A stretch of 64,000 nt of DNA from Dehalococcoidia bacterium (GTDB lineage Bacteria > Chloroflexota > Dehalococcoidia > Plut-88900): contig OZ240215.1 in the NCBI GenBank assembly GCA_965197585.1, positions 960,001-1,024,000 on the forward strand, in the 5' to 3' direction. Shown in pieces: positions 1,787 through 47,809 of this stretch. The notes beneath the pieces were generated by a model. The model was not told the DNA's origin. It saw nothing but the letters and a program-made list of their open reading frames with translations, and did no database searches. The position numbers and the translations under genes are program-made. The first letter of the stretch is position 1; every line of letters begins with the position of its first letter.

Positions 1787-1857
1787 ACACCCTCACTCTC
1801 CTCGGCGAGCCTACGGCCCTAGCCCTCTAACGCGCTGGTGCATCTACGGCCCATCAA
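1787..1857 (+). repeat. REP-like family C (CACCCTCACCCTAGCCCTCTCCCATCAA) carrying two 21-bp inserts
   Basis: Matches 4154-4183 and 48906-48948 after removing 1797-1817 and 1829-1849. Confidence 0.7.
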
Positions 1858-1993
1858 GAGACCTTTACGAAACTGCGGGTCGCGCCTTTGGTGTCAACCA
1901 GACCAGCTTATCCCCCTCCCCCCGCTCACACTTCGACGGGGCTCAGCACGAGCGGCCCCCCGGCCCCTTCGGCACGGGTCATACAAAGGTCAC
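1858..1993. mobile_element. Putative MITE-like remnant with GAGACCTTT...AAAGGTCAC ends, containing a family B repeat
   Basis: GAGACCTTTACGAAACT at 1858-1874 and imperfect inverted AAAGGTCAC at 1985-1993; the same left end recurs at 4184. Confidence 0.4.
1921..1960 (+). repeat. REP-like family B (CTTCGAnnnGCTCAGnnnGAGCGG)
   Basis: Similar to 5342-5380, 10347-10408, 10456-10499 and 47683-47745. Confidence 0.7.
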
Positions 1994-2475
1994 TATTCGT
2001 CAGGTGGTGGGGGCGTTTCATCAATGTCGGGGGGAGGGGTGAGGAGGGCTTCGCAACGAGCCTTTAGGGCCTCGTTCATTCTTTCGAAGCCTCGGCGGGT
2101 GGCGCCGCCGATGAGCCAAATGATCGGGATGACGAAGAAGCCGGATACCTCCTCGCCCTGTACGAAGCGGCAACGGGTGTCGTCTATGGGGTCGATGATG
2201 AAGTAGTGCTCCACGTCGAAGAGGCCGGGGAAGAGGATATTGCTCCTCCAGCTGAAGCCTCTTCCCTCTTCGACGAGTACAACACGGGGAGTTATCGTCG
2301 TGCCCTTGGCCCGAGGGGGTTTGATGAAGACCTCGATGCGCTCCCCTTCGACTATGTTGCCGGAGGCAAGGGGGAGGAAGGGGTTCCAATCAACGTATGA
2401 ATCGAGGTCTGAGAGTACGTCCCAAATGACGGACACAGGGGCCTCGATCTCGATTTCAGCGGCGATTATCCGCAA
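1993..2475 (-). CDS. SRPBCC/polyketide cyclase family protein
   Basis: 'EIEIEAPVSVIWDVLSDLDSYVDWNPF' and 'GFERMNEALKARCE' SRPBCC signatures. Confidence 0.85.
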   Translation of the reverse strand: MRIIAAEIEIEAPVSVIWDVLSDLDSYVDWNPFLPLASGNIVEGERIEVFIKPPRAKGTTITPRVVLVEEGRGFSWRSNILFPGLFDVEHYFIIDPIDDTRCRFVQGEEVSGFFVIPIIWLIGGATRRGFERMNEALKARCEALLTPPPDIDETPPPPDE

Positions 2476-2478
2476 GAC

Positions 2479-3291
2479 TTAGCGGCCCTTGTAGTTCGCC
2501 TTACGCTTGTCCCGGAAGGCGGCTACACCCTCGACGTGGTCCTCGGAGGTGAGGGTGATGGTCTCGAGGGCGGCGGACATTTGCATTGCCGTTTCCAGGT
2601 CCATGCTCAGAGCCTTGTATAGCATCAACTTGGATAGCCGTAGGGCGATGGGGGGGCCATCAGCGATCTTCCGGGCCATCTCCATAGTAGTGGCTTCCAG
2701 CTCTTCTTCAGGCACGAGCTTGTTGAGCATACCGAGACGATAGGCCTCGTCGGCCTGCAGGAAGTCGCCTGTGAACACCAGCTCGGCGGCCTTGGGAATG
2801 CCGAGGGTCTTGGCGTAGAGCCACATGCCGCCCCAGCCGGGGAAGAGCCCGACGCGGATGAAGGCTGCGAGGAATCGGGACTTGGGCGTACCGACTCGGA
2901 GGTCGCAGGCGCAGGCCAAGTCGAATCCCGCGCCGGCGGCTACACCGTTGATCATCCCTATGACCGGCTTCTGCATCCGGTGCACGCCAAGGACGATGTC
3001 CATGGCCTTGCGGAAGTTTCGGCGGATCGCCTCGGGGTTGGCCCCCCTGCCGTTGGCTGCGTTGCTGGACTCGTTGCCCGGGAGCTCGGAGACATCTGCA
3101 CCGGCTGAGAATGCCCTGCCGGCACCGGTAAATACCACGACGCCGACGGAGTCGTCATCACCCAGTTCCTTGATGGCCAGGCCCATCTCCTCTTCCATAT
3201 GGTCGGTGATGGCGTTTAGTTTTTGAGGGCGATTGAGGATGAGCTTGGCGATGCGGCCATCTCTTTCGATGAGAATGTCATCGTAAGACAT
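2479..3291 (-). CDS. Enoyl-CoA hydratase/isomerase family protein
   Basis: 'LNRPQKLNA', 'AFSAGAD', 'INGVAAGAG' crotonase motifs. Confidence 0.92.
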   Translation of the reverse strand: MSYDDILIERDGRIAKLILNRPQKLNAITDHMEEEMGLAIKELGDDDSVGVVVFTGAGRAFSAGADVSELPGNESSNAANGRGANPEAIRRNFRKAMDIVLGVHRMQKPVIGMINGVAAGAGFDLACACDLRVGTPKSRFLAAFIRVGLFPGWGGMWLYAKTLGIPKAAELVFTGDFLQADEAYRLGMLNKLVPEEELEATTMEMARKIADGPPIALRLSKLMLYKALSMDLETAMQMSAALETITLTSEDHVEGVAAFRDKRKANYKGR

Positions 3292-3466
3292 CTGTGGTCT
3301 CCTTATGGTTTAAGGCGTGAGAAGGTCAAACAGGAATGAAAAGGTCTTGCCTGGATGCAATGATAAGCGGGCGCGTCGGGTCGGGCAAGGGGTGGGGAGG
3401 TGGGATGGATGCAGGACTCGGCCCCGCTCATATTGGACGGGTCCGGCAGGCGCCGTCCCCCACTCC

Positions 3467-3491
3467 AGGGCGACCGGCCGATCTCCCCTAC
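3467..3491 (-). repeat. GTAG-type REP-like palindrome
   Basis: GGGCGACCGGCCGATCTCCCCTAC imperfect hairpin ending in CTAC; a relative is at 43523-43550. Confidence 0.5.
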
Positions 3492-3627
3492 AGGGGGGAG
3501 GGTATTCAGTTGTGGGGGAATGAGATGGGGGTGAGGTCGGTTAGGCAGTCTCCTTAGTTGGCTGAGAAGGGGGACGAGGTGAGGATGAGGGTTGCCAGCG
3601 CTCCCTCTGCGGCCCGGGACGGGGCGT

Positions 3628-3851
3628 GGGAAATCATCTGCGGGTAAGCGCAGGCATCCGCATCTACGCCGGTGAGGGCGGAGCGGGAAATCATCCGCGA
3701 CGTATAGCCGCAGGCATCCGCATCTACGCCAAGGGAGGCGGAGCGGGAAATCATCCGCGATAAAACGCGGGCATCCACGGTCGTGGGGCAAGCTCGCATG
3801 GGGTATGAGCCGTGGGTAATCATCCGCGGCGAGGGTACGCGGGCATCCGCA
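3628..3851. repeat. Four imperfect tandem units, core GGG(A/T)AATCATC(C/T)GCG-N-CGC(A/G)GGCATCC
   Basis: Unit starts at 3628, 3685, 3745 and 3814 (spacing 57/60/69). Confidence 0.85.
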
Positions 3852-3897
3852 GCGTTGTGGCGTTGCGGGGAAGTGGGCCGAGAGGGAGCGCTGGTCT

Positions 3898-4038
3898 TCA
3901 GGTACATCCTCGGTGGTCTAAGGGACTGGGAAGGGACACGAGGTTGGGAAAGGAGGGTGGGAGGAGGCGCGTGCCGGTTGCCGTGCGGTCCCATACCGCT
4001 CGGGTTCGACGGGGCCTTGTTAGGCTTGTGCGACTCAT
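3898..4038 (-). CDS. Putative 46-aa peptide (MSRTSLTRPRR...) downstream of an SOS-like promoter
   Basis: AAGGAG RBS just before the ATG and a promoter about 60 nt upstream; no recognisable domain. Confidence 0.35.
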   Translation of the reverse strand: MSRTSLTRPRRTRAVWDRTATGTRLLPPSFPNLVSLPSPLDHRGCT

Positions 4039-4097
4039 GGGACTCCTTGGTCCTTTCCTTTGGTAGGCCCGGCGTGGGGCGCCGGTACCTAGTGGGC

Positions 4098-4127
4098 AAT
4101 ATAGCACGAATGTTCATATCGAGTCAA
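4098..4127 (-). promoter_or_regulatory. Sigma70 promoter TTGACT-N18-TATATT with LexA-like box GAACATTCGTGC
   Basis: -35 at 4122-4127, -10 at 4098-4103, box at 4104-4115 resembling GAAC-N4-GTTC; homologous to 48977-49006. Confidence 0.65.
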
Positions 4128-4153
4128 GGGAGTGGGGGCACAGCTATCGGGGT

Positions 4154-4200
4154 GATCACCCTCACCCCAGCCCTCTCCCATCAGAGACCTTTGCGTAACT
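4154..4200 (+). repeat. REP-like family C half, truncated at its loop by GAGACCTTTGCGTAACT (IS-like end)
   Basis: Same junction as at 1857/1858. Confidence 0.6.
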
Positions 4201-4261
4201 CCTAGAACGGGGCCAGATTTAGCGTCTCAGTCAAACTGTCCAATCCTGAATCCCCAGCCCC

Positions 4262-4285
4262 AGATTCCTCGCGGGGCCTCGGAAT
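4262..4285 (+). repeat. REP-like family A (AGATTCCTCGCGGAGCCTCGGAATGAC), interrupted by IS481
   Basis: Matches the intact copy at 38524-38557 up to GGAAT. Confidence 0.85.
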
Positions 4286-5341
4286 TGTGGATGTCAGGTA
4301 ATTCGTTGACAGAATTAGGTGGATTTAAGGGTCTCCAAAGGGGTCTTTCCGTCCATTGCCTGGTGGGGTCTCTGAGTATTGTAGTAGATCAGGTATTGCT
4401 GAAGCTCGTCCTTCAGTTCCGAGACCGATTCGAAGGTTGTCCCCTCCAGCAGGTCCTCGTTCAAGGTTCTCCAGAACCGCTCTATCTTCCCGTTGGTCTG
4501 GGGCCTATAGGGTCGGGTGTAGCGGTGCTTTATGCCCAGCTCATTGAGCATCCGTTCCATGGGGTGGCCCTCGGTGTTCCTTGGGGAGGCCATCTCGGGG
4601 CCGTTGTCGGTGAGGATGGCCTCGAATTGGATGCCGTACTCCACGTTAAGGAAATTGATGGACTTCAGAGTAGCAAACATAACGGAGAGACTCTTGATGT
4701 CTCCGACCACTTCGGCCCAGGCCAGACGGGTGTAGGCGTCGATGAGGCCCACCAGGTAGTAGCGGTGCTTGGTGCCCACGATGGTATCCCGGCTGAGGTA
4801 GTGGCTGTCCAGGTGGCCCAGCTCTCCTGCCCGGGTCTTGATGATCTTGCGCTTCGACTGCTGCATCGGCTTTGTGAGCCTATTGAAACCGTGGCGTCTG
4901 GTGATGGCGTAGATGGTGGAGGGCTTAGGGGTGTTGTGTTTAAGGATGGGTTTGAGTATGGCATAGATCTCGTAACGGTTGGTACCGTTAAGGCGCTCGT
5001 TGATGACCTTCTGCTCAATGTAGGGCAGGGTGCGGCGGGACTTCCACCCGGGACCCCGCTTACGGGGGAGGAAGGCGTTGTCGGAGGGGGAGAGGAGGAA
5101 CCGGTTGTAGTACTTGGCGAAGGTCTGACGGCTAGTGCCGTGGAAGGAGTAGAAGTCCTGGGCGAAGCGGAAACGGGGATGCTTCCCTGCCTTGACCAGT
5201 TGATACTCATGGATGAGGAACCGCCACTTCTGAATGTAGTTACGTTCAAGGGTGAGGTCCTTGCTATTGTCTCGCATTCTCGCCTCCAGATTGGTGTTGG
5301 CCTCTTATACCAATCTGTCAACGAATTACCTAACACTTACA
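4286..5341 (-). mobile_element. IS481-family insertion sequence, copy 1 (1056 bp)
   Basis: TGT...ACA ends, about 27-bp imperfect TIR containing AGGTAATTCGTTGACAG; near-identical to 47810-48865; no matching TSD on the right. Confidence 0.92.
4315..5277 (-). CDS. IS481-family DDE transposase (rve integrase core)
   Basis: 'GHLD', 'LTDNGPE', 'RPYRPQTNGKIERFWRTL', 'YYNTQRPH' motifs. Confidence 0.93.
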   Translation of the reverse strand: MRDNSKDLTLERNYIQKWRFLIHEYQLVKAGKHPRFRFAQDFYSFHGTSRQTFAKYYNRFLLSPSDNAFLPRKRGPGWKSRRTLPYIEQKVINERLNGTNRYEIYAILKPILKHNTPKPSTIYAITRRHGFNRLTKPMQQSKRKIIKTRAGELGHLDSHYLSRDTIVGTKHRYYLVGLIDAYTRLAWAEVVGDIKSLSVMFATLKSINFLNVEYGIQFEAILTDNGPEMASPRNTEGHPMERMLNELGIKHRYTRPYRPQTNGKIERFWRTLNEDLLEGTTFESVSELKDELQQYLIYYNTQRPHQAMDGKTPLETLKST

Positions 5342-5481
5342 CTCCCGCAATAGACGGATCTGCGACAGGGTGAGCGGCCCCACCCCTGGGGATGGATTCC
5401 GGCTCTCGGCGCATGCCAAAGGCGTATCTTCGACATCTTCGTCCGGCTCTCGGTAGCGGGGATGATCCGCCTAAGTCGGAC
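5342..5481 (+). repeat. Cluster of a family B half-repeat and a family D repeat with nested 22-bp inserts
   Basis: Inserts at 5345-5366 and 5413-5434, the latter inside a split unit 5400-5412/5435-5443; hairpin TCCGCCTAAGTCGGA at 5466-5480. Confidence 0.7.
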
Positions 5482-5561
5482 AGGCTCCCCTCATGGGGAT
5501 GGGGTGGGGGTGTGCTATCATGTCGAGCGAAAAATCGGGAGCAAACGAGAAGGAGAAACAG

Positions 5562-7256
5562 ATGACCACGGCTGCAAAATTCGACGTTAGGCATCGGAGC
5601 AGAATTGTCGCGGACGGGCCGGACCGGGCGGCGGCTCGGGCGATGCTAAGGGCGGTCGGCGTCGGGGACAAGGAGTTTGAGCAGCCGTTCATCGGGGTGG
5701 CGAACACGGCGTCGGATGTTACGCCATGCAACGTGCACCTGGACAAGCTGGCGGAGCGAGTCAAGGCGGGTGTGAAGTCGGCGGCGGGTACGCCCTTCGA
5801 GTTTGGGGTGCTGACCGTGAGCGACGGGATATCGATGGGTACGGAGGGGATGAAGGCGTCGCTGGTGAGCCGGGAGCTGATCGCCGACTCCATTGAGTTG
5901 GTCTCCCACGGCGAATACTTCGACGGCCTCGTGACGATTGCGGGCTGCGACAAGAATCTGCCGGGGGCGATGATGGCCGCGGCACGGCTGAACATTCCGA
6001 CAGTCTTCCTATACAGCGGTACGATAATGCCCGGCAGATACGCCGGAAGAGACATCAGTATCCAGGATGTTTTTGAGGCCATAGGCGCGCATAGCAAGGG
6101 CCGGATCAGCGACTCCGATTTGAAGGACATCGAGTGTGCGGCGTGCCCGGGAGCGGGGTCGTGCGGGGGGATGTTTACGGCCAACACCATGTCCTCGACC
6201 ATCGAGGCTATGGGTATGGCACTGCCGGGGGCGTCGTCGGAGCCGGCGGTGGAAGAAGGGATATTGCAGAAGTCGTACGAGGCAGGCCGGACTGTGATGA
6301 GGCTGTTGGAACAGGGGATAAGGCCTCGAGACATCCTGACTAAGGAAGCGTTCGAAAACGGGATTGCAGTCGCTGTATCGATGGGCGGCTCAACTAACGT
6401 CGTTCTCCACCTACTAGCCATAGCTTACGAAGCCGGGGTGGACCTCAGCATCGAGGACTTCCACAGGATCAGCGAGCGCACGCCGTATATCGCGGACATG
6501 AAGCCAGGAGGCCGGTACCTCATGGTCGATCTGCACCGGGAAGGCGGCGTCCCGACGGTCATGAAGCGGCTCCTGGACGCAGGACTGCTGCACGGGAGTG
6601 CGATGACGGTTACGGGCAAGACTGTCGAGGAGAACTTGGCGGATGTGGAGATTCCGACCTCCGGCAAGGTAGTCCATCCCGTGGCCGAGCCCCTGAGTCC
6701 TCACGGTTCCATGGTGATACTGAAGGGTAATCTCGCACCCGAGGGAGCGGTGGTGAAGTTGGCTCATCCGGAGGATCTGAGCAAGGTCCACCGGGGCCGG
6801 GCGAGGGTGTTCAACAGGGAGCAGGACGCCTTCCGAGCCGTGGACAACCAGGAAATTGTGGCAGGAGACGTAGTCGTGCTGCGCTACGAGGGGCCCAAGG
6901 GCGGGCCCGGAATGAGGGAGATGCTCCACGTGACCGCCGCCATTGTAGGGCAGGGGCTGGGGGAGGACGTGGCTTTGATAACCGACGGCCGGTTCTCGGG
7001 GGCGACGCAGGGGTTCATGGTTGGGCACGTGGCTCCGGAGGCGATGGTCGGTGGGCCGATTGCGGTGGTTAAGGAAGGCGACACGATTGTCCTTGACATC
7101 CCCAACGCCCAGCTCAACCTGGACATTTCACAAGAAGATTTTGACCGGAGGCTGGCGGCGTGGGTCCCGATTCCGCCGAACTACACAACGGGTGCGCTGG
7201 CGAAATACGCCAAGCTGGCGACTTCCGCGTCTCAGGGGGCGGTGACGATGGGGTAG
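5562..7256 (+). CDS. ilvD: Dihydroxy-acid dehydratase
   Basis: 'PCN', 'SDGISMG', 'GCDKNLPG', '[10 protein letters not shown]', 'GGSTN', 'GPGMREM', 'TDGRFSG'; AAGGAG RBS before ATG 5562. Confidence 0.96.
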
Positions 7257-7600: not shown

Positions 7601-7616
7601 CCCGGCCTTACGCCGG

Positions 7617-8021: not shown

Positions 8022-8049
8022 GCTGCCCTCCTTGGATGGGTATCGGGGT

Positions 8050-9135
8050 TTAGGCTTGAATCAGCCACTCGTCGTACGGGTCTCCAGCGGATAGCATAGC
8101 AGTCATTTTGACGTCCATGCCGAACTGTAATTCGTGTGCCAAGAGCCGCCAGCCCTGGAGCATTGCGTCTTCCATCTCCGGGGGCCGAGGGTTTGAAGGA
8201 GGGAAGAGGCGGGGATTTCGCTTGTGCTGGCGGACCTTAATCAGGGTGTCGCTGACGGTTTCAATATCGACTTCTTCGTGAAGGGACTCGCGGTCCCGCT
8301 TGATGAAAAGGGCAAAGGCCTGAGGGGCGGAGTCCACATCTTCCAAGTTGTAGTCCCGCATTATCTTGCGGGCTAGCTGGACATGGGTGACCCGGCTGGC
8401 GTGCTCTACAATCGCTCGGGCCCCGCTAACTCCGTACATTTCCAGAAGGGCGATGATGTGACTGGTGACATATTCCACGGAGTAGTTCCGAAGGGCGCGG
8501 GCAGAGCGTTCCTCCGTCCAGTCTTCCACCGGAAGCTTCGGTCCATTTGCCGGATCGAAGGCGGGACCGCGCTCGGTGGGGCTGAACTGGAGCCGTTCAT
8601 CGGGTTCGAGGTCCCGGTCGAAGATCTTGAAGTATCCCTCGTAGCAGGAATCGCCCTGCTGGGAGGGCTGGGTGAGGACGAACCCGAGCCTCGGGTTGCC
8701 CAGGGAAACGCCATTGTGAGCGTGCCACGCCCAGAAAGTTGCGCGCCCTGTCTTGGGAGCGTAGGCGGCAATGCTGACTGCGGGGGAGAAGGGGCTGTCC
8801 GACATGGCGTAAGGAGGCGGGTAGCGGACCCAGACCTTCTCGGGGGTCTCCTCTATGTAATGGACGTCAAGGCCGCCCAGGATGTTGGAGAAATAGTGGT
8901 ATTTCCCGGCCTTCACGGCGTCGGAGGGTTCCTTATCCAGGCCAAGCTTTTGGAGGCCGGGGAGGAAATAGTTGAGCTGGTGACGTCTCAGCATCTTAAA
9001 CTTCAGGGTAGCGACGGCGTCCTGGCCATGAGCGCGGATTGTGGCCAGCTCCAGAGCGGAACATATGGTCATGTACGTATCGTTGGCGAGTTGGCACTTG
9101 CCCATGAGGGACTTGTTCCATTCGGGGACGTGCAT
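8050..9135 (-). CDS. Conserved hypothetical protein, paralog 1
   Basis: 361-aa ORF with RBS, highly similar over its full length to 9169-10254. Confidence 0.85.
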   Translation of the reverse strand: MHVPEWNKSLMGKCQLANDTYMTICSALELATIRAHGQDAVATLKFKMLRRHQLNYFLPGLQKLGLDKEPSDAVKAGKYHYFSNILGGLDVHYIEETPEKVWVRYPPPYAMSDSPFSPAVSIAAYAPKTGRATFWAWHAHNGVSLGNPRLGFVLTQPSQQGDSCYEGYFKIFDRDLEPDERLQFSPTERGPAFDPANGPKLPVEDWTEERSARALRNYSVEYVTSHIIALLEMYGVSGARAIVEHASRVTHVQLARKIMRDYNLEDVDSAPQAFALFIKRDRESLHEEVDIETVSDTLIKVRQHKRNPRLFPPSNPRPPEMEDAMLQGWRLLAHELQFGMDVKMTAMLSAGDPYDEWLIQA

Positions 9136-9168: not shown

Positions 9169-10254
9169 CTAGGCGCGAATCAGCCATTCGTTGTACGGGT
9201 CTCCTGCGGCGAGCATGGACATCATCTTGACGTCGAGGCCGAACTGAAGCTCGTGGGCCATGAGCCGCCAGCCCTGGGGCATAGCGTCTTCGATTTCAGC
9301 GGGCCAGGGTATGGAGGGTGGGAATAGGCGGGGGTTTCGGGTCTTCTGGCGGACCTTTATCAAGGTGTCGCTGACGGTTTCAATCTCCACTTCTTCGTCA
9401 AGCGACTCCCGGTCCCGCTTGATGAAGAGGGCAAGGGCTTCGGCGCCGGAGTCGGCGTCATCCAAGTTCATGTCCCGCATGAGCTTCCGGGACAGCTGTA
9501 CATAGGTAACCCGGCTAGCGTGTTCGACGATGGCGCGGGCCCCGCTTACCCCGTACATTTCCAGAAGGGCAGTCACGTGGCTGGTAACGTATTCGACGGC
9601 GTAGTTACGAAGAGCGCGGGCGGCGCGGACCTCGGTCCAGTCTTCAACGGGGAGCATGGGGGCGGTGGTCGGGTCGAAGGCAGGGCCTCGCTCGCCGGGG
9701 CTGAACTGGAGACGCTCTTCGGGTTCAAGGTCACGGTCGAAAATCTTGAAATATCCCTCGTGGCAGGCGTCTCCCTGCTGGGCGACCTGGGTGAGAACGA
9801 ACCCGAGCCTGGGGTTGCCCAGAGATACGCCGTTGTGGGCGTGCCATGCCCAGAAGGTGTAGTGCCCGACCTTGGGCCCAAACGCGGCGATGCCGACGGT
9901 CGGGGAGAAAGGGCTGTCGGACATGGCGTAGGGCGGCGGGTATCGGACCCAGGCCTTCTCGGGGGTCTCCTCGATGTAGTGCACGTCCAAGCCGCCGAGG
10001 ATGTTGGAGAAGTAGTGGTACTTCCCGGACTTCACCGCGTCGGAAGGGTCTTTGTCGATGCCGAGCTTTCGGAGGCCGGGGAGGAAATGGTCGAGCTGGT
10101 GCCGGCGGAGCATTTTGAACATAAGGGTTGCGGCGGCGTCCTGGCCATGGGAGCGCAGGGTGGAGAGCTCCAGGGCGTTGCATATAGACAGGTAGGTGTC
10201 GTTGGCGATCTGGCACTTTTCGATGAGGGACTTGTTCCATTCGGGGACTTGCAT
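9169..10254 (-). CDS. Conserved hypothetical protein, paralog 2
   Basis: 361-aa tandem paralog; many differences are synonymous, which supports coding status. Confidence 0.85.
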   Translation of the reverse strand: MQVPEWNKSLIEKCQIANDTYLSICNALELSTLRSHGQDAAATLMFKMLRRHQLDHFLPGLRKLGIDKDPSDAVKSGKYHYFSNILGGLDVHYIEETPEKAWVRYPPPYAMSDSPFSPTVGIAAFGPKVGHYTFWAWHAHNGVSLGNPRLGFVLTQVAQQGDACHEGYFKIFDRDLEPEERLQFSPGERGPAFDPTTAPMLPVEDWTEVRAARALRNYAVEYVTSHVTALLEMYGVSGARAIVEHASRVTYVQLSRKLMRDMNLDDADSGAEALALFIKRDRESLDEEVEIETVSDTLIKVRQKTRNPRLFPPSIPWPAEIEDAMPQGWRLMAHELQFGLDVKMMSMLAAGDPYNEWLIRA

Positions 10255-10346
10255 GGGTCACCTGCTTTGGGGTGGGGTGTGGGGGGGATGTTACAACATT
10301 TTTTGGAGGGGTGGGGGGTATCGGTTTGGCTGTCCGGGGGTCTCCT

Positions 10347-10499
10347 CCCGTTTGACGCTTCGAGAGCCTCACGCCTGAGACGGATCTGCGACAGGATGAG
10401 CGGCCCCGCACCTGGATTCGGGTGAGGAGTGTGAGGGTATGGCTGTCGGGGACCGCCCCCGCTCGACCCTTCGAGTGCCTCAGGGTGAGCGGCCCCGCA
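10347..10499 (+). repeat. Two family B REP-like repeats; the first carries a 22-bp insert (10371-10392)
   Basis: CTTCGAGAGCCTC[ACGCCTGAGACGGATCTGCGAC]AGGATGAGCGG versus the empty CTTCGAGTGCCTCAGGGTGAGCGG about 100 bp downstream. Confidence 0.8.
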
Positions 10500-14722: not shown

Positions 14723-15778
14723 TGTAAGTGTTAGGTAATTCGTTGACAGATTGGTATTCAATGGGTAAACCAATCTGGGGGCGAAGATGCGAGACAACAG
14801 CAAGGACCTCACCCTTGAACGTAACTACATTCAGAAGTGGCGGTTCCTCATCCATGAGTATCAACTGGTCAAGGCAGGGAAGCATCCCCGTTTCCGCTTC
14901 GCCCAGGACTTCTACTCCTTCCACGGCACTAGCCGTCAGACCTTCGCCAAGTACTACAACCGGTTCCTCCTCTCCCCCTCCGACAACGCCTTCCTCCCCC
15001 GTAAGCGGGGCCCCAGGTGGAAGTCCCGCCGCACCCTGCCCTACATTGAGCAGAAGGTCATCAACGAGCGCCTTAACGGTACCAACCGTTACGAGGTCTA
15101 TGCCATACTCAAACCCATCCTTAAACACAACACCCCTAAGCCCTCCACCATCTACGCCATCACCAGACGCCACGGTTTCAATAGGCTCACAAAGCCGATG
15201 CAGCAATCGAAGCGCAAGATCATCAAGACCCGGGCAGGAGAGCTGGGCCACCTGGACAGCCACTACCTCAGCCGGGATACCATCGTGGGCATCAAGCACC
15301 GCTACTACCTGGTGGGCCTCATCGACGCCTACACCCGTCTGGCCTGGGCCGAAGTGGTCGGAGACATCAAGAGTCTCTCCGTTATGTTTGCTACTCTGAA
15401 GTCCATCAACTTCCTCAATGTGGAGTACGGCATCCAATTCGAGGCCATCCTCACCGACAACGGCCCCGAGATGGCCTCCCCAAGGAACACCGAGGGCCAC
15501 CCCATGGAACGGATGCTCAATGAGCTGGGCATAAAGCACCGCTACACCCGCCCTTATAGGCCCCAGACCAACGGGAAGATAGAGCGGTTCTGGAGAACCT
15601 TGAACGAGGACCTGCTGGAGGGGACAACCTTCGAATCGGTCTCGGAACTGAAGGACGAGCTTCAGCAGTACCTGATCTACTACAATACTCAACGACCCCA
15701 CCAGGCAATGGATAGAAAGACCCCTTTGCAAACCCTTAAATCTCTCTACTGCTGTCAACGAATTACCTGACTTCTACA
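14723..15778 (+). mobile_element. IS481-family insertion sequence, copy 2 (1056 bp, variant ends)
   Basis: TIRs TGTAAGTGTTAGGTAATTCGTTGACAG / TGTAGAAGTCAGGTAATTCGTTGACAG; 5-bp TSD GGAAT at 14718-14722 and 15779-15783. Confidence 0.94.
14787..15770 (+). CDS. IS481-family DDE transposase
   Basis: Near-identical to the copy 1 protein, with a 7-aa C-terminal extension. Confidence 0.93.
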   Translation: MRDNSKDLTLERNYIQKWRFLIHEYQLVKAGKHPRFRFAQDFYSFHGTSRQTFAKYYNRFLLSPSDNAFLPRKRGPRWKSRRTLPYIEQKVINERLNGTNRYEVYAILKPILKHNTPKPSTIYAITRRHGFNRLTKPMQQSKRKIIKTRAGELGHLDSHYLSRDTIVGIKHRYYLVGLIDAYTRLAWAEVVGDIKSLSVMFATLKSINFLNVEYGIQFEAILTDNGPEMASPRNTEGHPMERMLNELGIKHRYTRPYRPQTNGKIERFWRTLNEDLLEGTTFESVSELKDELQQYLIYYNTQRPHQAMDRKTPLQTLKSLYCCQRIT

Positions 15779-16173: not shown

Positions 16174-16201
16174 GGGAGGGTATGATACTACGGATGGGGC
16201 G

Positions 16202-16256
16202 GGGATGGATTCACGCCAAAGGCGCATCTTTGACCGGCTCGGGGGCCGGAATGACG
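16202..16256 (+). repeat. REP-like family D (GGATTCCGGCTCGGGGGCCGGAATGAC) with a 22-bp insert at 16213-16234
   Basis: Removing the insert restores a perfect ATTCCGGC/GCCGGAAT stem; twin at 30899-30953. Confidence 0.82.
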
Positions 16257-20464: not shown

Positions 20465-20493
20465 TAGTTCCCTCGCGGAGCCTCGGGATGACA
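20465..20493 (+). repeat. REP-like family A variant, no IS inserted
   Basis: TAGTTCCCTCGCGGAGCCTCGGGATGACA. Confidence 0.75.
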
Positions 20494-22476: not shown

Positions 22477-22507
22477 CTTAGATTTCTCGCGGAGCCTCGA
22501 AATGACA
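22477..22507 (+). repeat. REP-like family A variant, no IS inserted
   Basis: CTTAGATTTCTCGCGGAGCCTCGAAATGACA, with compensatory changes in the stem. Confidence 0.8.
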
Positions 22508-30898: not shown

Positions 30899-30953
30899 GG
30901 GATGGATTCACGCCATAGGAGCATCTGCGACCGGCTCGGGGGCCGAGATGACG
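30899..30953 (+). repeat. REP-like family D with a 22-bp insert at 30910-30931
   Basis: GGATTC[ACGCCATAGGAGCATCTGCGAC]CGGCTCGGGGGCCGAGATGAC. Confidence 0.8.
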
Positions 30954-38523: not shown

Positions 38524-38557
38524 AGTCCTAGATTCCTCGCGGAGCCTCGGAATGACA
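38524..38557 (+). repeat. Intact family A REP (empty target for both IS types)
   Basis: AGTCCTAGATTCCTCGCGGAGCCTCGGAATGACA. Confidence 0.88.
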
Positions 38558-42523: not shown

Positions 42524-42583
42524 TGTCAGGGTTCCTCCGATAGAGGTGTCGATTCGATGTCGACGGTATGCCGAGTTAGCCGG

Positions 42584-43444
42584 TTAAACCAGGGCTACGG
42601 GGTTCCAAGGGGTGCCCGATGCCTCGGTGAGAGGGAGAGGCGCGCCCACGAACATGAATTCGTAGACCTGGTCTCGGGCCAGCTCCTCCAGGTTCATATT
42701 CTCCAGCAGGTAGATGCCGAGGTCTCGGAGGGCGAAGCGATGGAGCATGCTGGCACCATACCCGTCGACAGCCCCTTGCACTTCGATGGTCGGCTGGTCC
42801 GCCCCGATGGCGCAAACGTCTCTTTCCTTGAGCCACGGGGCAAGGGAGCCGTCAGGGCCGGGGACGCCGGAGCTCCAGAGGGCGTAGTCGCTGTAGAAGA
42901 CGGTGTGCCAGCCGGTGCGGAAGAGGAGGATGTCTCCCGGCTCGATGGCTATGCCCTGAGACGCAGCGACGGCGTCCATCTCTTCGCCGGTCAAGACTTC
43001 GCCGGGGCCCATGTGCTCGGTTCCCCGGTACCGGGGAACATCCAACATGATCCCGCGTCCGACCATGGTCTTCACCTGGTCGATGCCAATCTTGCGAACG
43101 CCGGCTTTGAAGACCTGCTCCTCCGAGTAGCCGTTATAGAACTGTCCCTCGGCCCAAGTGTGCCCGAGGGAGTCGATGTGGGTGCCGGAATGGGTATCGA
43201 TGGTAAGGACGTCTTCGGTGAAGCTGACGTCGGGGCCCGGGGAGGTGAAGGTGACCTTCCAAGTCTTGTGGAAGGGAACGTGCTGGTGGCCGTTACGCTC
43301 CAGGGGCACGGCGAGGCTGTAGGCCTTGCCCTTCTTGATCAGTTTGGCGGCCTTGAGCATCACGTCGGGAGTAAGGAGGTTGAGAGCCCCGACACTGTCG
43401 TCGGCGCCCCATCTTCCCCAGTTAGATACGGCAGCTTGAGTCAT
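42584..43444 (-). CDS. Cyclase family protein (kynurenine formamidase-like)
   Basis: 'NWGRWG', 'HSGTHIDSLGH', 'GDILLFRTGW'. Confidence 0.88.
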   Translation of the reverse strand: MTQAAVSNWGRWGADDSVGALNLLTPDVMLKAAKLIKKGKAYSLAVPLERNGHQHVPFHKTWKVTFTSPGPDVSFTEDVLTIDTHSGTHIDSLGHTWAEGQFYNGYSEEQVFKAGVRKIGIDQVKTMVGRGIMLDVPRYRGTEHMGPGEVLTGEEMDAVAASQGIAIEPGDILLFRTGWHTVFYSDYALWSSGVPGPDGSLAPWLKERDVCAIGADQPTIEVQGAVDGYGASMLHRFALRDLGIYLLENMNLEELARDQVYEFMFVGAPLPLTEASGTPWNPVALV

Positions 43445-43522
43445 GGCATTGCCTCCGGTTGAAGTGTGATAGTGGAATTGAGGATATTCTAACATCGCCC
43501 GCCTTTGTAAAGGGGCAGGCAT

Positions 43523-43550
43523 GGGGCGGCGGTTCTCGAACCGCCCCTAC
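43523..43550 (-). repeat. GTAG-type REP-like palindrome
   Basis: GTAGGGGCGGTTCGAGAACCGCC on the minus strand. Confidence 0.55.
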
Positions 43551-44158
43551 GGGAGGGAGCCTCCAAGGAAGGACTTGAGCATGATGTGCGCCATCGGTAG
43601 GAGCATGATCGGGGCAAGCAGGTAGGTCTTCCTTGTCTTGAAGCCGAAGGCAATTTCGTAGAAGGCACGTGGTAGGAAGGACACGAAGACATAGGCGAAA
43701 AGCCCGATGAAAAGGGTGTGCGGCACTGACCAGAGGCCGTGATAGGTCTCAGTTAGAAAAATGCTGAAGGCCGCCGTGGCCCCTGCCGAAATGGTCGCTA
43801 TGAAGGCACTAGCGATTGTAATTCCGACGCCCGACTCCCTGGGTATCTCGATGGAGGCAGAGCGGTAGAAGAAAGCCATGAGAGCGGTGGCGAGGGGCAG
43901 GAGGATGAGGTCGCCGACCATAAAGGCCGGGCTGCGGAGGAAGACGCTGGTTATGACTTCGAGGCGCCAGGCGATGAGGAGAAGCGAACCCCACCCGAGA
44001 ACCAGAATCATCAGCCCGACAATGAGCGGGTGAAGGGACATCAACCGGGCGAGAGGATCACCTGCTAGGAGGGCTCTCGGACCGGCTCTTTTCTTTTCTT
44101 CAGACTCGGGGTGGGGCGGTCGCTTGGGGAGGTCGAACCTCGAGCAGCGTGTTGTCAT
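43547..44158 (-). CDS. Hypothetical membrane protein (start uncertain)
   Basis: About five hydrophobic segments. Confidence 0.7.
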   Translation of the reverse strand: MTTRCSRFDLPKRPPHPESEEKKRAGPRALLAGDPLARLMSLHPLIVGLMILVLGWGSLLLIAWRLEVITSVFLRSPAFMVGDLILLPLATALMAFFYRSASIEIPRESGVGITIASAFIATISAGATAAFSIFLTETYHGLWSVPHTLFIGLFAYVFVSFLPRAFYEIAFGFKTRKTYLLAPIMLLPMAHIMLKSFLGGSLP

Positions 44159-44168
44159 CGGGGGTGCG

Positions 44169-45464
44169 TCAGACCACGGCTTTGATCATATCCATGTCTC
44201 CATCCTTGAAGCGGCTGTGTCGGAGAGCATGGATGTCAACGGAAGATTCCCCGTCGGCTATTAGCTCGGCGGTGACCTTGCCTGCGATCGGCCCGATGCC
44301 TATGCCCCGACCGCTGAACCCTGTGCAGAAGTAGAACCCCTTTGGAGAATCAGCTTCTCCTATAACGGAAAGGGCGTCGGGAGTAGCGTCGATGCGGCCC
44401 GACCAGTAGTGGTTGATCTTCAGGTCCTTCAGATCGGGGAACATGGACTTGAAGGTGACCAGGGCCTTGTCGATAACCTTCCTGTTGGGCTCGGGCTCGA
44501 CGCCCACGGTGTGAGCGAAGGGGTGTCGGCGGGATGGGGAGCCGGGCAAGCTTCTCAGGATGTCCTTTATCAGCGCACTCCCGACATGAAGACGGAACAT
44601 CTCTCGGTTCCTGCGGAAGTTTGGCATGAAAAGACGGATGTGTTTGAAGCTGTCCAGGTCAACGTCGTAGTCCGTGCCACCGGACCCCGGTGCGATGTAG
44701 ACCTCGCCCGTTGGCCTCTGCCGGAAGGCGATCCGGGGCCCGATGACCGCCATATCGGTAACGTGGTCGGTAGGGTTAGTCTGCCCGACGCTCGCCCGCA
44801 CCATCCGGTAGGGAAGGGTTTGGCCGACCATGCGGGCCACTTTGTGAGACCATGCCCCGGCCGCGCAGACTACGTTCTTGGTGACGATTCTGTCCCTTTC
44901 GGTGACTACGGCGGAGACTTGGCCATCGGTCACCTCGATGCCCTCGACGGCCTCCATAGTCCTGAAAAGGGCGCCGTGCTCCCGTGCCCCGATGGCGATG
45001 GCGTTCGTTGCCTTGTTGGGCTGGGCGTGGCCGTCGCTCGGGGTATACATGGCCCCAAGCCACTCACCCCGCATGGCCGGAAGAAGCTCTTTCACGTCCT
45101 CGTTGGTCAGGAACTTGGTCTCGATGCCGAACTGCTCCCCGACTTTGAGCCACGCTCGGATTCTTCCGAGTATCTCCTCGTCTCCCGCCAGGGTTAGTGA
45201 GCCACCCTGGTTCCATTCCACGTCTGCATCAAGCTCGCGCTCCATCTCCTGCCATACTATGGCCCCGGCAATCATCAGGGGCAGCTCGCGGGCGGTACGG
45301 GCCTGCTGGCGTACGAAACCCCAGGCTCGGCTGGACTGCTCATCCCCGACCTCGCCTTTATCGACTACTACTACGTTGAGGCCCTTCTTGGAGAGGTAGT
45401 AAGCGGTGGCGCAACCGGCTATCCCGGCCCCGATTACGACTACGTCGGCGGTGCGAGTATTCAT
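44169..45464 (-). CDS. FAD-dependent oxidoreductase (D-amino acid oxidase family)
   Basis: 'IGAGIAG', 'EQSSRAWGFVRQQ', 'TGFSG'. Confidence 0.9.
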   Translation of the reverse strand: MNTRTADVVVIGAGIAGCATAYYLSKKGLNVVVVDKGEVGDEQSSRAWGFVRQQARTARELPLMIAGAIVWQEMERELDADVEWNQGGSLTLAGDEEILGRIRAWLKVGEQFGIETKFLTNEDVKELLPAMRGEWLGAMYTPSDGHAQPNKATNAIAIGAREHGALFRTMEAVEGIEVTDGQVSAVVTERDRIVTKNVVCAAGAWSHKVARMVGQTLPYRMVRASVGQTNPTDHVTDMAVIGPRIAFRQRPTGEVYIAPGSGGTDYDVDLDSFKHIRLFMPNFRRNREMFRLHVGSALIKDILRSLPGSPSRRHPFAHTVGVEPEPNRKVIDKALVTFKSMFPDLKDLKINHYWSGRIDATPDALSVIGEADSPKGFYFCTGFSGRGIGIGPIAGKVTAELIADGESSVDIHALRHSRFKDGDMDMIKAVV

Positions 45465-45474
45465 GCACGATCAC

Positions 45475-45915
45475 CTAGCCTTGGTTTTCTGGCGGGTAGA
45501 CTCGCTTGGCACACAGTTTATCGTTAGCCATTTCAAAGATTTCCACGTCATCCGGAAATAGGTGGCAGTAGCGTCTTACGTAGTGCTCTGCCAAAGTTTC
45601 ACCGGCTCGGTTTTTGTCAGTCTTCCGTAAGAAGAGCATCTTATTGTACTTATCGGATGTGGCAGAAAAGTAAAGCATTGCCTCGTTAGCCGTTGAGAAC
45701 TTGGCGCTAGGTGACCCTCCGCTTTTTAACCAACTGTACGATTTGCATTCAACCAGCAGGGCGTCGCTACCTAAATCGAACTTGTGCAACGCATTGTGCC
45801 GAGTATTTACACTGATCGTGACCTTATGCTCTGCCTCTAGGCAGTGCCCCTTGCATTCCTTCAAGTAGCGTTGAACACGACAAGTGAATTGTCTTCCCTT
45901 TTCGAAGTTGTTCAT
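45475..45915 (-). CDS. Hypothetical protein with a PD-(D/E)XK nuclease-like motif, low GC
   Basis: 'HKFDL...LVECK' and N-terminal 'G..F' helix; AT-rich codon usage. Confidence 0.6.
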   Translation of the reverse strand: MNNFEKGRQFTCRVQRYLKECKGHCLEAEHKVTISVNTRHNALHKFDLGSDALLVECKSYSWLKSGGSPSAKFSTANEAMLYFSATSDKYNKMLFLRKTDKNRAGETLAEHYVRRYCHLFPDDVEIFEMANDKLCAKRVYPPENQG

Positions 45916-46014
45916 CTATCTCCCCACTCTTTCAATTTATCTCGCACACAATACTCGCGCACAACAAGGGAATAGTGCCTCTATACGTCACGTATAGAAC
46001 AGCTAGTGAACTGG

Positions 46015-46043
46015 TTGACAATTCTATCATGTTCTAATAGATT
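46015..46043 (+). promoter_or_regulatory. Putative sigma70 promoter TTGACA-N17-TAGATT
   Basis: Consensus -35 and spacing, in an AT-rich intergenic region. Confidence 0.5.
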
Positions 46044-46130
46044 ATCCGATAATGCTGGTAGAATACATACGACAAAACCTCTTCACCTACCTACAGCACT
46101 CTCATTTAATAGCATGTTATTTATCATATT

Positions 46131-46292
46131 ATGCCAGTTATCATTTGTTTGGGCCTAATCTTGCTAGGTTTACTGGCCTTCACACAAGGCTGGTACTTCC
46201 GTGGTAACGCCCTGGTCGCTGCCGCCTTCATCCTTATGGGCCTCTCAGCTATATCCCGCGTCTTAGTCGCCGTGTGGCCCGCAGCTGCATAA
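46131..46292 (+). CDS. Putative 53-aa two-TM small membrane protein (not in the ORF track)
   Basis: MPVIICLGLILLGLLAFTQGWYFRGNALVAAAFILMGLSAISRVLVAVWPAAA. Confidence 0.5.
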   Translation: MPVIICLGLILLGLLAFTQGWYFRGNALVAAAFILMGLSAISRVLVAVWPAAA

Positions 46293-46313
46293 AAACGTCC
46301 CTTTTCAACCAAT

Positions 46314-46592
46314 ATGCGTATGAACAATCTTTGGGAACAAGCCTACCTTCCGGGCACTGGGGCTGAGCTTTATCAATGCGATGGCAAACTATGGCACTCT
46401 ATTGAATACCACGATCCGGACTACATGACCTGGATAAACGGACACCCAGGCACACCACAGCCTGAGGATGGGTTTTACTGCGACTCGTGTGTTTGGTATG
46501 CTGAACGAGAGGCCAAGAAGGGTAACAGACCCGAAGTTGCTCTCGGCCCGACCCTGGATGAAGAGCTAAAGCGACGACTCTTGTCTTCCTAA
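46314..46592 (+). CDS. Hypothetical protein (Cys/His-containing)
   Basis: 92-aa ORF with 'CDG..WH' and 'YCDSC'. Confidence 0.55.
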   Translation: MRMNNLWEQAYLPGTGAELYQCDGKLWHSIEYHDPDYMTWINGHPGTPQPEDGFYCDSCVWYAEREAKKGNRPEVALGPTLDEELKRRLLSS

Positions 46593-46628
46593 ATCCCGTG
46601 GTGTAAAGGTATCTATCCCTAGACAAAA

Positions 46629-47507
46629 CTACTCCCGGGGCTTTGACCTGGGGCCGAAGGGCTCGGGGATGAAGGGGCCGTCGCGGAGCTTGAGGAACTC
46701 ACGGAGACCGCCGCGGCGCTGGGCATCGTCCAGAGGCTGGTAGAAGTCTCGGCTGCGGGAGAGGTGAGCCAGGGCCTTCATCTCGTTGTTGAGGAGGAGG
46801 GCGTTGCGAAGACCCATCATGTTGAGGCCCTGGGTAGCGACCTGAAGGTTAATCTTCACGGTCTCGGGGGCGTTCATGGCGATGCGCTCGACTATGGAGA
46901 AGCAGCGGTCTATAAGCTGGTTGTGGGGCACGACTTCGTTGATCAGACCGATGCGGAGAGCTTCATGGGCGTCGATGTGGTCGCCGGTAAGGGCGTAGCG
47001 CAGGGCGTGCTTGTACCCGGCGTTGAGGACCCAGAAAAAATTGGTGTCGTCACCCATCCGGACCTCGGGCTGACCGAAGACGGCCTCGTCTGAGGCAAAG
47101 GTCATGTGACAGGCGAGGGCGTACCAGGAGGCTCCAGCGAGACACCAGCCGTTCACTGCGGCAATCACGGGCGTTCCCATGTCCCAAATCTGCAGGAGGT
47201 TCGCCTGCTCACCCTTGTCATGGTTCCGCTGAAACTCAATCTGCTCGGCGATGTTTGCGCCTTCGGGCAGTCCCGAGGGCCATTCCATTGGGCGTCCCGC
47301 TCCGATGTCGTATCCTGACGAAAAGGCCCGGCCCGAGCCGGTAATGACGACGGCGCGGACCTCGGGGTCAGCGTCTGCGGCGTAGAGGGCGTTGCTTAGC
47401 TCAGACGCTACCTCTTGCGAGATGGCGTTCAGGGTCTCGGGGCGGTTGAGGGTGATGAGGACACCCTTACGCTGCTTCTCGTAGAGGATAGTGTTGTATT
47501 CGGTCAT
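46629..47507 (-). CDS. Enoyl-CoA hydratase/isomerase family protein
   Basis: 'AFSSGYD', 'VNGWCLAG', 'FGQPEVR'. Confidence 0.9.
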   Translation of the reverse strand: MTEYNTILYEKQRKGVLITLNRPETLNAISQEVASELSNALYAADADPEVRAVVITGSGRAFSSGYDIGAGRPMEWPSGLPEGANIAEQIEFQRNHDKGEQANLLQIWDMGTPVIAAVNGWCLAGASWYALACHMTFASDEAVFGQPEVRMGDDTNFFWVLNAGYKHALRYALTGDHIDAHEALRIGLINEVVPHNQLIDRCFSIVERIAMNAPETVKINLQVATQGLNMMGLRNALLLNNEMKALAHLSRSRDFYQPLDDAQRRGGLREFLKLRDGPFIPEPFGPRSKPRE

Positions 47508-47602
47508 GAGGTGCTCCTTCTTTTGAACGGCTGATGAGGCAACACTATCGTGTCGTATTTGTGATGGTTGTGCAACACTTTATTTCCCGCCCCCCTGCCC
47601 CT

Positions 47603-47809
47603 CGTCGTTTCTGCGCAGGCAGGAACCCACCCTTTTCTCCCCCGTCATTCCGGCCGCCGAGGCGTGAATCCATCCTTGGGGAGGGGCCGCTCATCCTGAG
47701 CTTGCTGTAAGTCCGCTGAGGCGGATCGAAGGGTCGAGCGGGGGGAGGCCCAGTTTTGCCAATACATCGCCCTCACCCCCCGCCTCCACCCCAGCCCCCC
47801 TGTCATTCC
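47603..47809 (-). repeat. Cluster of REP-like repeats (CGTC-type, family D, family B with a 21-bp insert at 47704-47724, tail of family A)
   Basis: CGTCATTCCGGCCGCCGAGGCGTGAATCCATCC at 47643-47675; family B at 47683-47745; TGTCATTCC at 47801-47809. Confidence 0.72.

Follow-up and report, generated by a model that had tools for sequence, protein, structure and literature searches.

We analysed a 64,000-nt stretch of DNA from a Dehalococcoidia bacterium (contig OZ240215.1, positions 960,001–1,024,000; hereafter the window), in which a unit of 22 nt, a small hairpin followed by a tail, sits inside short palindromic repeats of several families. With a G+C content of 60%, the window is densely packed with genes. 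These are paralogues with catabolic functions (luciferase-like monooxygenases, family III CoA-transferases, enoyl-CoA hydratases, acyl-CoA dehydrogenases, Rieske oxygenases and amidohydrolases), and the mobile elements include an IS481-like element, present three times, and a single IS110-family transposase gene. No transfer RNA or transfer-messenger RNA gene was found in the window, and Rfam at the gathering threshold gave no match in the window or in 10 repeat-rich loci.

The 22-nt unit and its copies in the window

A preliminary description had reported eight related inserts in three repeat families (B, C and D) and had read them as one candidate mobile element; all eight strings are present where it placed them. 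Written as a pattern with up to three mismatches, its consensus matched the window five times against 0.56 expected, with none of 100 shuffles reaching five, and three exact matches were found against 0.00 expected. This comparison is circular, because the pattern was derived from those same copies. A covariance model (R1) was built from 52 distinct units of other genomes and contains no window sequence; searched against the entire window without filters, it gave 48 matches at E ≤ 10. Its best six lie at 16213–16234 (E = 1.3e-8), 30910–30931 (4.8e-8), 10371–10392 (7.8e-7), 5413–5434 (2e-5), 5345–5366 (0.06) and 1830–1850 (0.079). The five core units are therefore the five best matches of a model that had seen none of them, which confirms the observation as a whole. 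Four window units are firm by score; those at 5345 and 1830 are borderline by score and both are backed by their context. The window copies are decaying, with 1–4 mismatches each.

Beyond the window, public genome contigs were scanned once with a unit pattern that included the leading C, which gave at least 123 unit-bearing stretches (loci L001 onwards). All locus-based counts below refer to the matches listed in that scan, and the loci and the window together span about 415 kb. The labels Dehalococcoidia, Chloroflexi or Chloroflexota stand on 103 of the at least 123 stretches. Among the matches listed there are 141 unit matches, 134 of them distinct. A relaxed scan of loci and window, with up to four mismatches, returned 187 hits (121, 38, 10, 6 and 12 at 0, 1, 2, 3 and 4 mismatches), which represent 176 distinct copies; block shuffles gave 2.2 hits per replicate at four mismatches, 0.2 at three and none at fewer. 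Plasmid and phage collections queried with an eight-unit array returned no match, and the literature that we searched gave no description of such repeats in Dehalococcoidia or SAR202.

The type-1 unit reads ACGCC-NNA-GGCGCATCT-N-CGAC. It is laid out as A-[CGCC-NNA-GGCG]-CA-[TC-TNC-GA]-C, that is, a 4–5-bp hairpin with a free loop and a tail with a 2-bp mini-palindrome, and it folds into the 4-bp hairpin CGCC-NNA-GGCG. Its ends, ACGCC and CGAC, are not inverted repeats of each other, and any duplication is at most 1 nt (a C/C ambiguity). Across the 134 distinct copies, positions left free by the search pattern are nearly fixed (G10 0.97, C11 0.93, C13 0.85 and C19 0.93), and loop positions 6–7 and position 18 vary freely. 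A sister unit, type 2, reads CCGCC-NNN-GGCGG-ACTTTCAGC and is found in several hosts. In 67 distinct type-1, type-2 and window sequences, the tail helix (positions 15–16 with 20–21) is paired in all 67, as TC:GA, CT:AG or CC:GG; pair 15–21 is T-A in 54, C-G in 11 and T-G in two, and pair 16–20 is C-G in 57 and T-A in 10. Covariation this strong did not arise in any of 500 shuffles, and every slid control collapses. Position 1 is usually an A/C mismatch with position 13, and the changed cases mostly pair (A-T 8, C-G 5, G-C 1). DNA folding of filled hosts gave z below −1.7 in only three of eight, so thermodynamics alone says little.

Each core unit of the window lies in a recognisable host. The best-scoring one, u4 (16213–16234, plus strand), is within a family-D hairpin; the filled copy, GGATTC·unit·CGGCTCGGGGGCCGGAATGAC (16207–16255, plus; here and below, dots mark junctions), has 49 nt compared with 27 nt in an identical empty copy in L040. 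A second family-D copy (host ~30900–30952) holds u5 (30910–30931, plus) in the intergenic region that separates a CoA-transferase gene from an amidase gene, the two being divergent; this host belongs to repeat family D12 and is 89% identical to the copy at 16201–16256. Unit u3 (10371–10392, plus), of a family-B subtype (...GGATCTGCGAC), stands where the loop of a family-B hairpin (host ~10344–10410) meets its 3′ arm, and L078 and L092 have the same host with the same unit subtype. An empty family-B copy (CCGCTCGACCCT tcgagtgcctc AGGGTGAGCGGCCCC) lies at 10456–10499 (plus), and repeat family D8 aligns it with the filled copies.

Two further core units are less regular. Unit u2 and a second tail occupy 5413–5443 (plus), the unit at 5413–5434 and the tail, ATCTTCGTC, at 5435–5443, in a family-D-like copy that starts at 5390. 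This is what nesting of one unit in another, or duplication of the tail, looks like; a unit with an extra 9-nt tail also occurs in L008, L014, L019, L093 and L114. Unit u1 (5345–5366, plus) is a decayed copy of the family-B subtype, 85% identical to 10368–10415 (repeat family D6), and the end of an IS481-like element stands in place of the family-B left arm.

Family C was compared in an alignment (A1), in which the copy at 1780–1885 has two additional blocks of 21–22 nt relative to the empty copies at 4157–4192 (plus) and 48906–48945 (minus). The second block, d2 (1829–1850, plus), is a decayed type-1 unit with the tail CATCTACGGC at the site CCCTCT(C)·...·CCATCA, and the same family-C site is filled with a canonical unit in L016, L030, L046, L050 and L106. 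The other block, d1 (1797–1817, plus), has no R1 match and weak alignment scores. It may be another hairpin cassette instead of the unit, and L016 has a different 23-nt hairpin cassette at about this site. A third insert, d3 (47704–47726, minus), lies in the loop of a minus-strand family-B copy within a composite of families B and D (~47644–47745); it is a type-2 unit of the CCGCC-NNN-GGCGG-ACTTNCAGC family, and 18 of 22 aligned positions agree with the type-2 units that L057 and L103 carry. Thus, of the three divergent 21-bp versions first grouped with the unit, that at 1829–1849 stands as a decayed unit at a canonical site, that at 47704–47724 belongs to the sister type, and that at 1797–1817 is a genuine family-C insertion that the type-1 model does not match.

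Removal of the insert restores the host in all three families, as had been claimed: in family C by alignment A1, in family B by the filled copy at 10344–10410 against the empty one at 10456–10499, and in family D, which has no clean empty copy in the window, by the exact empty 27-mer in L040. A 28-nt family-D copy (GGATTCACGCCTCGGCGGCCGGAATGAC; 47644–47671, minus) has only ACGCC left at the insertion point, a single case that may have arisen when a unit was lost imprecisely from a filled copy, or may be an empty copy that has diverged. Family A is present as an empty 27-mer (AGATTCCTCGCGGAGCCTCGGAATGAC; 38530–38556, plus; repeat family D4), with additional empty copies near 20466–20492 and 22480–22506.

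Host repeats, nesting and strand polarity

The hosts had been called unrelated, which is true of families B and C and does not extend to families D and A or to the commonest host elsewhere, all three of which belong to one superfamily, (G/A)GATTC...GAATGAC. Families B, C and the hairpin H5 have nothing in common with this GGATTC superfamily. A census of 137 distinct superfamily copies gave empty lengths of 25 nt (31 copies), 27 nt (26) and 28–29 nt (6), and singly filled lengths of 47 nt (30) and 49 nt (21), the empty length plus 22 nt every time. Copies with two units measure 69 nt and those with four 112–113 nt. There are two superfamily insertion points, GGATTC·C... and GGATTCCSGC·TTTC, one per subfamily, and the further hosts are filled at CCCTCTC·CC... 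(family C), GCCTC·AGG... (family B) and GTCCGY·CGTG... (H5).

The unit occurs in at least eight junction types: CCGGC·TTTC; GATTC followed by CTCGCGG, CCGATCGG, CTGCCTCC, CCGACTAC or CGGCTCGG; CTCTC followed by CCTTAGGG and by CCATCA or CCGTCG; GCCTC·AGG; GTCCG(C/T)·CGTG; and GGCGC·ATCT, the last being insertion of the unit into itself. The left flanks GATTC, CCGGC, CTCTC, GCCTC, GTCCG(C/T), GGCGC and CGAC have only their last base in common. With its fixed ends, and exactly 22 nt present or absent in many different repeats, the unit is a discrete module, as first proposed. The accompanying statement that it follows a C and ends in C describes all five core window units; the first half fails more widely, since 40 copies found outside the C-anchored pattern are preceded by C in 18, T in 16 and G in six.

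By class, the 176 copies comprise 27 in H1, 22 in H2 (filled family A), 21 in H3, 21 in H4, seven in H5 and three in family B, with 32 tandem, 10 nested, 13 other (mostly host variants) and 20 in records not labelled Chloroflexota. Filled hosts are the minority when they are not selected for: among 81 host copies outside the search pattern, 63 are empty (≤29 nt) and five carry a type-1 unit, and a few more have type-2 tails. The 20 matches in records with other labels include eight with the full GGCGC, against ~0.6–1.6 expected, and their flanks are unshared; four come from one Sumerlaeota-labelled bin. Near-perfect units occur in L031, L051, L053, L073 (CAZGKP01), L049, L037, L104 and L026, which have ~50% G+C and come from bins labelled Sumerlaeota, Calditrichia or ‘bacterium’; those in L031, L073 and L104 are preceded by ...TCCG, like the Dehalococcoidia H5 host. 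These matches reflect either cross-phylum spread or mis-binned short contigs.

Units also nest within one another. Unit lies within unit at the fixed point GGCGC·ATCT, a type-2 unit occurs in the loop of a type-1 unit, and the same double and triple nested composites are found in hosts H2, H3 and H4. Head-to-tail arrays of 2, 4, 4, 6 and 8 units, with a 22-nt period, occupy the same site in paralogous copies of one larger repeat of OY762251.1. [quoted passage not shown] In the CTGCCTCCGCAGG subfamily of OY764147.1, 11 rows comprise four empty, five single, one double and one composite copy. Both left-flank flavours of this subfamily occur empty as well as filled, and repeated gain, loss or exchange is therefore needed. 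A larger parent element, which the preliminary description had suggested looking for, was not found: 87 of 130 distinct left-junction matches end exactly at 22 nt, the longer genuine units are nested composites of 34–56 nt, and nothing longer than these, gene-bearing or otherwise, is bounded by ACGCC... and ...ATCTNCGAC in the ~415 kb.

Other hairpin-plus-tail cassettes of ~23–28 nt stand at the unit’s host insertion points in L027 (947–997), L020 (3780–3856), L101 (57–109), L030 (1895–1940) and L016 (family-C site). In the first three the cassette is CCCGTATCAAGTACGGGGTGACGTTC after GGATTCCSGC, the complement of which resembles a CGTC-tagged repetitive extragenic palindrome (REP), and CCGCCCCGAGGGACTCGGGGCAGGCT is a cassette in a family-C site. 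A further one, CGCC-NNN-GGCGGACT-N-CGCTC, lies in a GAGATYGCCATC...CTCGCRATGAC hairpin in L006, L009, L043 and L055, and there are many such repeats in non-coding islands of OY762251.1. In L002 (~2050–2100, minus) a family-D left flank is joined to a unit containing a type-2 unit and then to a family-B right arm, a chimera whose sequence suggests recombination between units in different hosts. In L052, L064, L080 and L121 the right arm of a filled H1 is broken after GCCGGA by GTATCCGTGTTGG..., apparently another insertion sequence (IS), and the nearby cluster of open reading frames (ORFs) has only a weak HTH_29 match.

Strand polarity was measured as local skew within ±1.5 kb, with the repeat masked, in the window and in loci of at least 3,900 nt, records not labelled Chloroflexota being left out. 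The strand reading ACGCC...CGAC is the locally G-rich one in 93 of 98 units, and empty hosts are on the locally G-rich strand in 45 of 48. After non-Chloroflexota, short, three overlapping and both-strand loci were dropped, GC skew on the unit’s strand was positive in 55 of 60 loci (mean +0.118). The plus strand of the window has a skew of +0.06 to +0.17 through genes of either orientation, except at 44–52 kb, where skew is ~0 to −0.05 and where the only minus-strand B–D composite lies. This segment (44000–52000), which also contains an IS481-like copy and an AT-rich stretch with small ORFs (45916–46628), may be a local inversion or an acquired segment. On five chromosomes neighbouring units share a strand without a simple two-arm pattern, the origins not being mapped. 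A chromosome's G-rich strand is, as a rule, its leading strand, which makes it the template for lagging-strand synthesis. Because empty hosts are equally polarised, the polarity argues for a replication-linked single-strand process of the whole repeat system and not of the unit specifically. Excision and insertion of IS200/IS605 elements are described, in passages of PMC5027513, as strand-specific, on the lagging-strand template and without duplication.

Proposed insertion, probable host-borne spread and rival explanations

Our best reading, to which we give a probability of about 0.55, is that the unit is a discrete gene-less insertion module of 22 nt, pasted into single-stranded hairpins with a few entries per host family and then spread by its hosts. 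Self-nesting, the lack of terminal inverted repeats, a duplication of at most 1 nt and strand polarity fit insertion into single-stranded hairpins. A trans-acting enzyme would recognise the hairpin and the tail mini-palindrome and would paste the unit in one orientation immediately 3′ of a C, or now and then a T, without duplicating the target. Its targets would be DNA able to extrude as a single-stranded hairpin, namely the arms and loops of short palindromic repeats and the unit itself, and the strand polarity suggests that insertion would take place on the lagging-strand template. Insertions would be rare, with at least eight founding junction types; later copies would come from multiplication of filled host repeats and local head-to-tail duplication into arrays, with some exchange or repeated gain and loss between copies. 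Anatomy, presence or absence of exactly 22 nt, nesting, arrays, strand polarity, host-linked unit variants and wide distribution are observed; the enzymatic insertion and the single-stranded substrate are inferred, and so, since no transposase was found, is the HUH/Y1 kind of enzyme that the preliminary description had suggested.

Several observations weigh against this reading. Position 18, counting G and T only, is G in 16 of 21 H1 copies, and T in 16 of 17 H2, 18 of 20 H3 and 17 of 19 H4 copies (chi-square p = 1.2e-7), and the loop is ATA in 15 of 21 H3 copies (p = 4e-7). Each subfamily has one fixed insertion point, though several subfamilies contain both candidate sites. Between L008 and L041, a 95-nt block consisting of a whole D element with its unit is found only in L008, and no filled/empty pair at a truly orthologous site was seen in close strains. 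Target choice is barely specific, amounting to a preceding C, for which 16 of 40 unselected copies have T, compared with the 4–5-nt targets of IS200/IS605. The unit’s polarity could simply be inherited from polarised hosts, and the tail covariation may stem from just two or three events, those that gave type 2 and the CC:GG tails. When 3,682 ORFs of at least 60 aa from the loci and the window were searched by phmmer with Escherichia coli RayT, the lowest E was 0.16, the single-sequence query being of low sensitivity, and the pattern HUH...Y...N/Q matched none of these ORFs.

The link between unit variant and host extends to family B, all three copies of which have the same subtype with a TGA loop and G at position 18; the ...GGATCTGCGAC tail is common to u3, to the relatives’ family-B copies and to the truncated u1. 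L008 and L041 (85% identical) both have a family-C unit, with all three loop bases different and the rest identical except that L008 has a duplicated 9-nt tail. The window at 44.6–50.6 kb is syntenic with L030 (OZ220734.1, labelled Dehalococcoidia; 79–82% identity), whose intergenic repeats differ, so this comparison gives no filled/empty call. The dependence of unit variants on the host speaks against the fresh insertion at each site that the preliminary description supposed, which is not upheld. Together with the fixed insertion points and the presence or absence of a whole D element, this makes most copies probably passengers of host repeats that were already filled.

The alternative with most weight, which we still consider unlikely, makes the 22-mer a building block of composite hairpin repeats, comparable to the extra motifs in the bacterial interspersed mosaic elements (BIMEs) of E. 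coli. Only the composites would multiply, and the module would appear in hosts through recombination, conversion or template-switching at stalled forks. The shared left and right ends of the host superfamily offer homology for such exchange, and the tracking of host by unit variant, the L008/L041 difference in a whole D element and the L002 chimera of D left flank, unit and B right flank are all as expected. So are the other 23–28-nt cassettes at the same host sites (CCCGTATCAAGTACGGGGTGACGTTC in L027, L020 and L101, another in L030). That the unit is essentially never found outside other repeats in Chloroflexota loci is likewise predicted by the building-block explanation, and counts against the insertion reading. 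Against it, the right flanks (CCGATCGG, CTGCCTCC, CCGACTAC, CGGCTCGG, CCTTAGGG and AGGGTGAG) are non-homologous and yet meet the unit at exactly the same base, hosts B, C and H5 are wholly distinct from the GGATTC superfamily, self-nesting takes place at one fixed point, and the flanks in records not labelled Chloroflexota are unshared. A good deal less probable is a selected functional site, such as the binding site of a dimeric protein or a structured signal, spread by host repeats; the integration host factor site in some BIMEs is an analogue. Two small palindromes (CGCC-N3-GGCG and TC-N3-GA), conservation of sequence and not of structure alone, across species and apparently phyla, and a strand polarity like that of known polar chromosome motifs would suit such a site, as would the L008/L041 unit, kept with changed loop bases and otherwise the same bar the tail duplication. 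Yet the unit has no consistent position or orientation relative to genes in 63 loci (the four combinations of flanking-gene orientation number 19, 14, 14 and 15, with one undetermined, by crude stop-to-stop ORFs), only ~5 of 81 unselected host copies carry it, arrays of up to eight and nested copies are hard to read as sites, the window copies are decaying, and there is no Rfam match.

That the units are footprints of excision, or solitary ends, from some larger transposable element is very improbable. The unit has a defined head and tail between which 21–34 nt of ‘cargo’ are tolerated, but none of the 130 left-junction matches in the ~415 kb has unit ends around more than nested units, the ends of the window’s IS481-like and IS110-family elements are unrelated, and single-strand transposons excise precisely according to the relevant passages of PMC5027513. 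Chance similarity of GC-rich low-complexity strings has only the shortness of the unit in its favour and is already refuted by the R1 result, by the consensus matches against expectation, by the 187 hits against the few per shuffle replicate, and by at least 123 stretches elsewhere.

The insertion reading can be widened. Hairpin cassettes of 21–28 nt as a class (type 1, type 2 with its compensatory tail, and at least one more at the same host sites) might be true gene-less mobile elements that undergo single-stranded DNA transposition on the lagging-strand template, moved by an enzyme not yet linked to such substrates. They could take up other cassettes as cargo and would occur in several phyla. 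Nothing more than a hairpin of 4 bp and a mini-palindrome of 2 bp would define them. We put this wider proposal forward tentatively, as clearly less probable than the insertion reading itself.

Surroundings and relation to known elements

Genes near the units were compared by clustering 1,265 ORFs of at least 100 aa and searching Pfam with 18 representatives. The recurrent neighbours are only catabolic paralogues (short-chain dehydrogenase, amidohydrolase, luciferase-like, CoA-transferase, enoyl-CoA hydratase, M24, arginase, ABC and M20), one member having a weak HTH_29 match, and the orientation of the unit relative to flanking genes shows no bias. ORFs in a repeat island of L009 (1640–3139) were rejected as genes because of their Arg-rich nonsense translations.

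The IS481-like element of the window is ~1,056 bp long, has one ORF of 320–327 aa with an rve domain, and occurs at 4286–5341 (minus), 14723–15778 (plus) and 47810–48865 (plus). It lies in the 3′ arm of a family-A hairpin (...CCTCGGAAT·...·GGAATGAC), and thus this REP-like hairpin appears to be its target. A 5-bp duplication, GGAAT, accompanies copies 2 and 3, and a 96–98% identical copy adjoins GGAATGAC in L041 (CBDFLQ010000007.1, 1–744). Copy 1 has family A on one side only and the truncated family B with u1 on the other, which suggests a rearrangement. Elsewhere in the window, tandem repeats of ~60 nt (CGCAGGCATCCGCATCTACGCC...GGGAAATCATCCGCGA; repeat families D17 and D19) occupy 3606–3776 inside a 1-kb non-coding stretch (3292–4314), and two adjacent paralogous ORFs of 361 aa (8050–9135 and 9169–10254, minus; ~81% DNA identity, repeat family D3) have no Pfam match.

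Although the preliminary description knew of no named element of this form, comparable ones have been described: SDR5 in HIP1 and the GTAG-23 REPs of Thermomicrobium roseum. The small dispersed repeats (SDRs) of Nostoc punctiforme and relatives, treated in a 2008 study by Elhai et al. (Genome Res 18:1484), are reportedly 21–27 nt long, form several hairpin families, are nested and move by a mechanism that is not known. Precise insertion of SDR5 in the palindromic repeat HIP1 of cyanobacteria is described in a section of PMC4390886, and a passage of the REPIN paper (PMC3116915) counts SDRs among short interspersed palindromic sequences of unknown origin. Our unit resembles SDRs so described in being a small gene-less module, here of 22 nt, placed precisely within other repeats or nested. 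It differs in belonging to another phylum and apparently in sequence.

For the Chloroflexi member T. roseum, part of PMC3733652 describes GTAG-23 REPs inside small palindromes. REP stems down to 5 bp and tandem clusters are known. REPs are proposed, in passages of PMC6006769, to be mobilised by a trans-acting Y1/HUH enzyme on single-stranded DNA, and the canonical REP there has GT[AG]G at, or 1–2 nt from, the hairpin foot. Canonical REPs have also flanked a RAYT (tnpA-REP) gene and usually form inverted dimers (PMC6006769 and PMC3733652, in the sections concerned). The unit shares with REPs a short hairpin and an unpaired tag. Unlike them, its complement, GTCG-N-AGATG-CGCC..., has no GT[AG]G at the hairpin foot: the G-N-AG position equals GTAG only if position 18 is A (frequency 0.13 in the 134 distinct copies), and GTCG lies 6 nt from the stem. 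Further, units occur as singletons or head-to-tail arrays of one polarity (93 of 98) and not as inverted dimers, and no RAYT was found among the 3,682 ORFs.

Gene-less derivatives of IS200/IS605 elements are called palindrome-associated transposable elements (PATEs). In E. coli, BIME accessory motifs are short, occur only combined with palindromic units and are variably present; they lie between palindromic units and not inside stems, and are not known to be self-nested, to form arrays or to be shared across phyla. The unit is likewise a short motif variably present with palindromic units, but is located inside stems, self-nested and arrayed. With IS200/IS605 elements, as portrayed in the parts of PMC5027513 concerned, it shares strand specificity, a lack of terminal inverted repeats and of target duplication, hairpin recognition and an orientation bias consistent with the lagging-strand template. 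Those elements have separate left- and right-end hairpins, a 4–5-nt target and at least 100 nt, whereas the unit packs one 4-bp hairpin and one 2-bp mini-palindrome into 22 nt, its sole target feature is the C or T before it, and no tnpA was seen in the sampled loci. The unit works like a single-strand hairpin element and is a member of neither REP/RAYT nor IS200/IS605 by their defining features.

To our knowledge, very small nested repeats have been on record since at least 2008, and nobody knows how they move. The present system offers several complete long-read Dehalococcoidia chromosomes and many hosts that occur both empty and filled. Its clues to mechanism, an insert of exactly 22 nt, a covarying tail mini-palindrome and more than 90% of copies on the G-rich strand, make the question testable. 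The unit looks like one of the smallest mobile pieces of DNA. If hairpin cassettes are indeed mobile, they would be among the smallest bacterial mobile DNAs and a route to solving the long-unexplained SDR-type elements. In a large uncultured clade, the DNA between genes is filled with these repeats and their variable arrays, which will affect assembly, alignment and promoter prediction there.

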